Source: a virus
Reading direction: 5' to 3' (one strand)
DNA length: 40,275 bases
IMG/VR virus record: IMGVR_UViG_3300015242_000001
Positions within the stretch are counted from its first letter, which is position 1. The number at the start of each line of letters is the position of its first letter. Under the pieces are notes generated by a model. The model searched no databases, was not told the origin of the DNA, and saw nothing but the letters and a program-made list of their open reading frames with translations. Below, piece after piece: positions 38,512 to 40,275 of this stretch. Position numbers and translations under genes: made by a program.

Positions 38512-39150
38512 TAATCCCTCTGCACACTATGTAATAGGCTCCTGCTCCTGGATAAAGGAATTGAGCAATACTTGTTGCACCTATTACATAGCTCACCCTT
38601 GGGAGGCTGATTAATATCCCTTTCTAACATTTTAAGTTGAGGCTGTCTATTAATCAGGAGGATTGTTTATACCTCTGAGAATGGTGCATTAATAGACAAT
38701 TATTTAGGCTGTAACAGTCGTCAATAACTTACATTTGATGGATCGCTAAACCTCCATACCTATATAATTGTCGTAATATCTTATTTGGAATAATCCGGAT
38801 ATAACGGTATCTTTGCGTTATCAGATGTAAAAATACATAATATACCCGAATGTAATAAACTGTATTATTAAGACACGTTGAATGTGTGCCTTGTCACAGG
38901 GAGTCTATCCCCTGCTACCTTTCCGAACGTGATATAATGCAATTTACTGCTTCGGGTATCCTTGTTACATAGGCTCAGATACTTGCCTTCGTTACTTACT
39001 GGTAACATTCAGACCATGATGCACATAGTTTGGGCGCTTACTGTAATTTCAGCGACGTTAACCACAATTCAGTGATTTCAACCTTTCACACGTTTGATCC
39101 GGTTTCTGTTCCTGTACTTAGTAAGGTACATTGTCTGTTTCAGGATCACG
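38512..39150 (-). ncRNA. putative large (~640 nt) structured ncRNA, family unrecognised
   Basis: No ORF of 60 aa or more in a genome otherwise wall-to-wall coding; many nested inverted repeats (12 bp 38527-38/38580-91; 11 bp 38644-54/38688-98; 9 bp 38842-50/38951-59; 11 bp with one mismatch 38729-39/38820-30). Confidence 0.65.
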
Positions 39151-39153
39151 ATA

Positions 39154-39208
39154 CTAAGGTAAAACTAATACTATTCTAAACCTAATAATTTTTGTCATTT
39201 ATTTGTCA
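39154..39208 (-). promoter_or_regulatory. putative promoter (TTAG-N20-TACCTTAG) with upstream TGACA-N6-TGACA
   Basis: Near-consensus -7/-33 elements; direct repeat TGTCA at 39193 and 39204. Confidence 0.5.
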
Positions 39209-39234
39209 CGATTAACTGATCTTTTACCAGTGTT

Positions 39235-39286
39235 GACTAGGACACGGTTTCCCGTGTTTCGCTGACTTACAGCTCATCGGCTAGTC
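39235..39286 (-). ncRNA. type I hammerhead ribozyme (U4C core variant)
   Basis: Minus strand: GACUAG CCGAUGA GCUG-UAAGU-CAGC GAAA CACGG-GAAA-CCGUG UC CUAGUC; three perfect stems, GAAA core and GUC cleavage triplet. Confidence 0.88.
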
Positions 39287-39441
39287 TTTTAGAAATCTAA
39301 AGGTTATATTATAATAACCCATTTTTTCAAGCAAGGGAACCCATAAAATAGCCTCTTTTTCGGTTTCTACTGCTTTACAGTGATAATTGCTATTGTAATA
39401 AAATTCTAAAATATAGTTTATTGTTCTCATAATAATTAGAT

Positions 39442-39705
39442 TTAAAGGTTATCATTGATGTGCTGAACGATGGCTGTATAAGTGGTTTCCGGGACTGGCT
39501 CCCGTTGTCCTTTGGCAAGGAAAGGGGAAATAAGATACAATTGCACACTATATACGGGTAGTTCATTTGATTTGTCCTTTGTGACAAAGATATGCAGTCC
39601 GTCCGGCGCGTTGTCTGCTATCCAGTCCATGAGTAATTCAAGGGCGTGGGTTTCCTTTGATATAAGGATAGTGTTTTTATTGATAAGATAATATGCTTTG
39701 TTCAT
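39442..39705 (-). CDS. hypothetical protein
   Basis: 87-aa ORF. Confidence 0.55.
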   Translation of the reverse strand: MNKAYYLINKNTILISKETHALELLMDWIADNAPDGLHIFVTKDKSNELPVYSVQLYLISPFLAKGQREPVPETTYTAIVQHINDNL

Positions 39706-39723
39706 GATCTAATGGTTTAAGAG

Positions 39724-40047
39724 TTATTGATTAATATACAATGTAGCGTACTGATACCCCCAAAAATTAGACTGTATGAGTAGCATGTTTTTACTGCTCC
39801 TTATAGCTATTTTCATACAGTCATTAACAAATTGCTGAGTGTCCTTAATTGATCTTGGACCAGCAATATTAAAATCAAAACTAAAGAAGCTATGTTTTGT
39901 ATCAACTGTTGTTCTACAGGTATCAATCTCGCAAATAATAGCCTTGTTGTGCTTAGCATAGTCATATACTATAGTAACCTGCTCAGCGGGTGGTAATTCA
40001 TTAATGTTTGCTGGTAAGCCTATTATATTGGACGTGGTGATTGACAT
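39724..40047 (-). CDS. hypothetical protein
   Basis: 107-aa ORF. Confidence 0.55.
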   Translation of the reverse strand: MSITTSNIIGLPANINELPPAEQVTIVYDYAKHNKAIICEIDTCRTTVDTKHSFFSFDFNIAGPRSIKDTQQFVNDCMKIAIRSSKNMLLIQSNFWGYQYATLYINQ

Positions 40048-40275
40048 ACAATGTAGTTTAAAGATTATTCAGCAATAGTAACTTTATAATACCCTTTGGG
40101 ATCAATCCAGTACTTAAAGCCTCCATTGTCACACGTATTGGTTTGTTCTATCAATTCATATGCACAATCAGCTAGTGTCTCCTGCGCTAATGTATAGAAA
40201 AGTCCCTGTAAGGTTGGTTCGTTACGTTGTTCTTTTGCTTCATTGACGGCCTGAAATAACCAGCGCTTGCCCTGC

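Follow-up and report, generated by a model that had tools for sequence, protein, structure and literature searches.

A compact type I hammerhead with a natural U4-to-C core substitution near the left end of a phage contig

Background

The hammerhead is a textbook small ribozyme in which the 2'-OH of residue 17 attacks the adjacent phosphate, leaving a 2',3'-cyclic phosphate and a 5'-OH end, and in which the core nucleotide U4 is regarded as nearly invariant. In phages and prophages, hammerheads flank genes or short gene blocks, transcripts carrying several of them are cleaved in vitro at every site, and the processing of long transcripts is their favoured but unproven role (PMC3088659, PMC6765202). 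The closest described counterparts of the element analysed here are the phage and prophage type I hammerheads of Perreault et al. 2011 (RF00163, clan CL00010; PMC3088659), with which it shares the three-way junction with an open stem I, the core, the A15.1-U16.1 pair, the GUC cleavage triplet, a setting among small same-strand genes and the proposed processing role. It differs from them in the presence of a C at core position 4, in an Rfam score below the gathering threshold and in being followed by an ORF-free stretch instead of a start codon.

The same core substitution occurs naturally in a viroid hammerhead, which, as summarised in PMC3088659 (citing Ambros and Flores 1998), is much weaker in vitro but sufficient in vivo for infectivity. 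That ribozyme sits in a replicating circular RNA pathogen, whereas the C4 hammerheads described below are of type I, are encoded by double-stranded DNA phages and occur at a minimum of 12 loci, diverged relatives among them. The hammerhead of phage Bcep176 carries an A6C change and still cleaves, with its preference shifted towards Mn2+ (PMC3088659, PMC7151607). Both this ribozyme and the element described here are phage intergenic hammerheads with a single change in the conserved core, at position 6 in Bcep176 and at position 4 here. Hammerheads between phage genes and one natural U4C hammerhead are already known, and a literature search recovered no paper on recurrent C4 hammerheads in DNA phages.

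Genomic context of the hammerhead locus

The window, that is, the whole 40,275-nt stretch of DNA analysed, corresponds, in reverse complement, to bases 1-40,245 of an IMG/VR viral contig of 82.6 kb. Its last 30 bases (40246-40275) lie off this contig and seem richer in GC than the phage DNA, and an open-ended 69-codon ORF (40065-40274) extends into them. The sizeable ORFs are all encoded on the window minus strand, where small ORFs without a PHROG match are followed by a replication module coding for a DNA polymerase, helicases, a primase and a UvsX-like recombinase. The GC content of 33% and the lack of Shine-Dalgarno (SD) sequences before the genes would fit a Bacteroidota-type host. The hammerhead is located on the coding strand approximately 960 nt from the left end of the contig, amid the small same-strand ORFs and downstream of three of them, with 107, 87 and 49 codons. 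The last of these (39281-39430, minus strand) is preceded by an early-gene start motif, and its TAG stop codon (39283-39281) falls inside stem I of the hammerhead.

This motif, centred on CCTTTAAA, is found 10-12 nt upstream of the ATGs of the left-end early genes both in this phage and in its relative G001. Copies are located on the minus strand at 39292-39306, 39437-39451, ~39711-39725 and ~40053-40067, and G001 has many more within its first 5 kb (L267, reverse strand). The motif often overlaps the stop codon of the preceding gene and is restricted to the left-end module, without enrichment across the whole window. It precedes the C4 hammerheads of both phages by 9-10 nt, the copy at 39292-39306, which is degenerate, lying 9 nt 5' of the hammerhead in this phage. 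It could act as a promoter element of the early genes or as a signal for SD-independent start or re-initiation. Upstream of the hammerhead, neither a sigma-70-type scan nor one for TAnnTTTG, the -7 motif of Bacteroidota, revealed a convincing promoter.

Members of the hammerhead class to which the element belongs (see below) are usually located ~10-30 nt 5' of a gene start, with a ribosome-binding site or an ATG following next. The window copy departs from this arrangement, being followed by a 14-codon mini-ORF and then by approximately 600 nt without a convincing ORF under genetic codes 11 or 4, or with TAG read as Q. No tRNA, Rfam family or homolog in G001 or the GenBank phages was found for the region 38640-39235 (minus strand), and the fold of the ~600-nt ORF-free stretch is no more stable than those of its shuffles (z = -0.95). 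The surrounding region, window positions 38600-39900, likewise showed no similarity to the GenBank phage collection.

Anatomy of the predicted hammerhead

A complete type I hammerhead, with stems of 6, 4 and 6 bp and a GUC cleavage site, can be read on the minus strand at 39286-39235, both from the sequence and by descriptor scan. Stem I is formed by six Watson-Crick pairs between 39286-39281 (positions 2.6-2.1) and 39240-39235 (positions 1.1-1.6). It is followed by the core strand C3-A9 (39280-39274), which agrees with the consensus C3 U4 G5 A6 N7 G8 A9 at six of seven positions, the sole deviant being the C at 39279, which occupies the U4 site. Stem II and its loop (39273-39261) consist of four pairs, 39273-39270 with 39264-39261, including the canonical G10.1-C11.1, and of a 5-nt loop at 39269-39265 that fits the pattern U-N-A-N-U. 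G12, A13 and A14 follow at 39260-39258. Stem III (39257-39242) comprises the A15.1-U16.1 pair (39257/39242) and five more pairs, so that 39257-39252 pair with 39247-39242, and is closed by a GAAA tetraloop (39251-39248). Position H17 is taken by a non-G residue, C17, at 39241. Overall, 12 of the 13 core positions are canonical and 16 pairs are perfect. On its 5' side the element is bordered by an A-rich flank (39290-39287), of which an A abuts stem I, and on its 3' side two A residues (39234-39233) abut the same stem, both features being recognised from the class frequencies given below.

The preliminary description of this DNA, which was drawn from the letters alone, had proposed a type I hammerhead with C4 as its only departure from the conserved core and with cleavage between 39241 and 39240. 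Every element was recovered at the positions it gave, and C17 falls on 39241 by hammerhead numbering, so that the predicted cut lies on the 3' side of this residue (39241/39240) and the 3' strand of stem I would form the 5'-OH end of the downstream product. The perfect pairing it ascribed to the stems likewise holds for stems I (6 bp) and II (4 bp), while stem III has six pairs, A15.1-U16.1 included, and not the five originally counted. When 71 nt were folded, the minimum free energy (MFE) structure was precisely the three-way junction, stem I being open. With the native context extended to 231 nt, all three stems are retained in the centroid structure, and the MFE structure re-pairs stem I and retains stems II and III.

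Class membership and statistical support

In searches with hammerhead models, a step which the preliminary description had proposed, the element remained below threshold in Rfam and scored 54.9 bits with a model of its own class. In the Rfam scan at gathering thresholds the window element was unmatched, while at an E-value threshold it was reported as Hammerhead_HH9 with 18.9 bits, below the cut-off of 52. Searches of the whole contig with the Rfam hammerhead families returned no match, RF00163 included. Canonical U4 copies in the loci L011, L100, L135 and L266/G001 fared little better, as few of them were reported by Rfam 15 and none at the gathering score, the best value among these loci being 31.5 bits against RF00163, for which the cut-off is 34. 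The failure of Rfam to recover the window element is therefore uninformative, because its canonical compact phage siblings are missed as well. At the Rfam thresholds, standard annotation would overlook most of what is an abundant class of compact phage type I hammerheads.

The class model, R1, is a covariance model derived from 23 canonical (U4) type I hammerheads of viral contigs. When it was run with filters off against the 40-kb window, this element was the sole significant match (54.9 bits, E ~6e-12), the runner-up scoring 12.1 bits. Canonical members score 51-70 bits with R1, a range that is somewhat inflated since most of them are training sequences, and the other C4 copies score 43-63 bits. 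Elsewhere on the 82.6-kb contig, which was covered in full by a descriptor scan, no second convincing hammerhead appeared. The window element genuinely belongs to the compact type I hammerheads of phages. That a hammerhead-like arrangement arose by chance in AT-rich intergenic DNA is extremely improbable. While the sub-threshold Hammerhead_HH9 match would be in line with such a resemblance, the Rfam thresholds are also failed by the canonical siblings, and the R1 E-value, the distance to the next match in the window at 12 bits, the 16 perfect pairs, the 12 of 13 canonical core positions, and a loop and flanks that bear the signature of the class, all argue against it.

Peripheral signature of the compact class

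Members of the compact phage type I class share an open, A-capped stem I of exactly 6 bp, a stem II of 4 bp whose loop reads U-N-A-N-U, and a stem III of variable form. Among 164 non-redundant class members (loci L002-L417), the first position of loop II is a U in 100%, the third an A in 88% and the fifth a U in 90%. The base immediately 5' of stem I, A(-1), is conserved in 163 of the 164 members (99%), and the first and second bases 3' of this stem, A(+1) and A(+2), in 159 (97%) and 138 (84%), respectively. All of these signature positions are present in the window element. The class thus has a peripheral signature which is both simple and testable.

It had been suggested that AGU in loop II could pair with ACU in the 3' flank (39231-39229) and that this contact might compensate for the substituted core. 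Such pairing is permitted by the sequence, but across the 164 members the fractions with loop II/flank complementarity were 0.11 and 0.16, as compared to permutation-null means of 0.15 and 0.14, showing no excess over permuted loops. A loop II/flank pseudoknot was consequently rejected as a feature of the class, and the AGU/ACU pairing is possible in this single copy. As both the loop and the flanks are conserved without Watson-Crick covariation between them, the pattern suggests that across the class the conserved loop may touch the A-capped end of stem I by means of a non-Watson-Crick tertiary contact. An intact peripheral contact of this kind could partly offset C4 in the window element, by analogy with the tertiary contacts which are generally thought to compensate for variant hammerhead cores (PMC3088659).

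The C4 hammerhead of a related phage

No relatives were found by means of the protein encoded by a 133-codon ORF of this phage, and a pattern in which the same stem II was fixed yielded 22 canonical hammerheads and no close relative of the window copy. In the collections searched, the 107- and 87-codon ORFs matched only G001, a complete 78.3-kb phage genome with terminal repeats, as well as a short metagenome fragment which ends before the hammerhead site. The terminal 195 nt of G001 and this phage show 98% identity and the products of their 107- and 87-codon ORFs share 90% and 86% amino acid identity, respectively, and beyond the 87-codon ORF the two diverge almost completely. Both contigs start at the same nucleotide, and since G001 is complete with terminal repeats, the start of the contig analysed here is probably the true left end of the genome.

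A C4 hammerhead is also encoded in G001, directly after the next, unrelated ORF and 10 nt behind an early-gene start motif. Its core strand is identical to that of the window copy, C4 included. Stem I differs by U-A in place of C-G at 1.1/2.1 and by G-U in place of A-U elsewhere, with pairing kept, while the sequences of stems II and III are wholly different from those of the window copy and are still paired, and the cleavage triplet is CUA. Conservation of the stems in related phages, the lack of which had been named at the outset as evidence against the element, was thus observed in the one relative compared, in that the stems differ in sequence and yet all pair. A second hammerhead of G001, located 2.1 kb further along, has the canonical U4. 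In both G001 hammerheads (L024:2960-3012 and L024:5051-5103) stem II is opened by a U10.1-U11.1 mismatch, to which one of them adds C4 and the CUA triplet. Hammerheads with this mismatch are a rare, tolerated variant (PMC3088659), and the window copy has the canonical G10.1-C11.1 pair at this position.

The C at 39279 is represented by a single metagenomic contig, with which the one relative was compared, and could in principle stem from an assembly or sequencing error or from a minor allele, in which case the true phage sequence would have U4 and a fully canonical hammerhead. This is very unlikely, because C4 is likewise found at the homologous site of G001, which was assembled independently, and C4 hammerheads are furthermore present in ten other contigs.

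Recurrence of C4 in other phages

Two pattern scans of viral contigs, both of which fixed U7, were used in the search for further C4 copies. The first, in which the C4 core and the G10.1, C11.1 and GAAAC positions were fixed, recovered intact C4 hammerheads in L030, L062, L083, L089, L100 and L135 (R1 scores of 46-63 bits) among the 118 stretches listed. The second, with stem I matched to this lineage (29 stretches), recovered intact copies in L282, L287, L288 and L290, besides that of G001. Together with the window copy and that of G001, the ten other viral contigs bring C4 hammerheads to at least 12 loci. Like canonical copies, the other C4 copies are located just 5' of a ribosome-binding site or a start codon. 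In a tabulation from the descriptor parse, which covered eight of the 12 C4 copies, three to five Watson-Crick kinds of pair occur at most stem positions. The copies in L030, L062 and L083 are syntenic and retain C4, even though their flanks share only ~70-80% nucleotide identity, and in their stem II a G-C pair is replaced by A-U, with pairing maintained, alongside changes in stem III. In L100, a canonical sibling with the same stem I is located 1 kb from the C4 copy.

A control pattern with A4 gave no well-formed hammerhead among the 119 stretches listed, with one 26-bit R1 match only, and the proportion of well-formed hammerheads among the matches listed differs between C4 (6/121) and A4 (0/119; Fisher p = 0.03). 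With the matched stem I pattern, five well-formed C4 hammerheads stand against at least 141 with U4, and all 58 of the neighbouring, unselected hammerheads in the same loci have U4, with no C4 among them. The share of C4 in the class is below ~4%, a bound derived from the matches listed and not from a census. Half-decayed C4 copies were essentially lacking in the R1 searches, save for one match of 28.7 bits. Two weak R1 matches without a proper stem III, L038:7066-7114 (C4, 28.7 bits) and L174:2820-2890 (A4, 26.3 bits), could reflect chance, or hammerheads that have decayed or been split.

The recurrence of C4 in intact copies of other phages suggests that it is probably tolerated rather than a mark of decay, while its rarity in the class indicates that it could be mildly deleterious. 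The main alternative to an active ribozyme is an inactivated relic or a non-catalytic element, a once active hammerhead whose catalysis was abolished by C4 and whose fold either lingers briefly or is kept only as a stable 3' or intergenic structure. The U4 residue, which contacts the phosphate between A6 and N7 (PMC3088659), is among the most conserved of the core, core mutations as a rule reduce activity in vitro drastically (PMC3088659), and deep mutational scanning of a type III hammerhead showed the CUGA turn to tolerate mutations poorly (PMC9901934). These costs, the rarity of C4 and the lack of the usual start codon directly downstream of the window copy are all in keeping with a relic. 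By contrast, every stem of the window copy is perfect, and C4 has been kept over the long term, along with compensated stems, in two independent lineages, represented by the positional homolog of G001 and by L030, L062 and L083, despite their strongly diverged flanks. The near absence of half-decayed C4 copies, the 28.7-bit match excepted, and the failure of the A4 control to yield a well-formed hammerhead among its listed matches further argue against decay, and a dead relic is accordingly considered somewhat unlikely.

Proposed role in transcript processing

The observations are best explained by a genuine member of the compact class with a natural U4-to-C substitution, which is fairly probably cleaved at 39241/39240, presumably at a reduced rate, and splits the left-end transcript. 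The same-strand genes of the left end would be transcribed and the RNA would fold into the three-way junction, whereupon the chain would be cut between 39241 and 39240 through attack of the C17 2'-OH on the residue's own phosphate. The upstream product would be a message with the 107-, 87- and 49-codon ORFs, the ribozyme body forming its 3' end and carrying a terminal 2',3'-cyclic phosphate, and the downstream product an RNA beginning with a 5'-OH, so that the three left-end genes would be separated from the RNA that follows. With C4, cleavage would probably be slower yet still take place, and the core probably folds more readily thanks to the intact peripheral signature. Counting against such a role are the lack of a start codon next to the window copy, the lack of a recognised promoter and the Rfam scores below threshold.

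The processing of an early multi-gene transcript had already been put forward for this element. It fits the setting, since the hammerhead lies on the coding strand at the left end, with small same-strand ORFs before the replication genes, and it fits the published proposals for phage hammerheads. While the sequence and fold of the window copy, its place in the class and the repeated, conserved occurrence of C4 are established, its transcription, its cleavage, the effect on rate and the biological role are inferred. Alternatively, C4 hammerheads may form a functionally tuned subclass which is kept by phages as slow or conditional cutters dependent on pH or metal ions, although we regard this as unlikely. 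A protonated C could replace the hydrogen bond of the U-turn, which would make cleavage dependent on pH, and a dependence on metal ions could be envisaged by analogy with the Mn2+ preference of the A6C hammerhead. In a tuned subclass, C4 at chosen junctions would govern how much of the early RNA is read through and how much is processed, the junction in this phage being that between the left-end genes and the 600-nt ORF-free, possibly non-coding, RNA region.

Under the favoured reading of a natural, slower-cleaving class member, the element remains another phage hammerhead, with a substitution that has once been reported in nature. Should the C4 copies cleave, searches in which U4 is fixed would undercount natural ribozymes, and the U-turn would be more tolerant of variation in a full-length context than the biochemistry of minimal ribozymes has implied. 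Phages may then also tune the completeness of transcript cutting through core variants. In the viral contig region L135:2288-8611, approximately 15 type I hammerheads, one of them C4, are encoded within 6.5 kb. Nearly every hammerhead in this locus is followed after 5-10 nt by an AGGAGG ribosome-binding site and an ATG, an arrangement by which each gene would gain its own 5'-OH leader.
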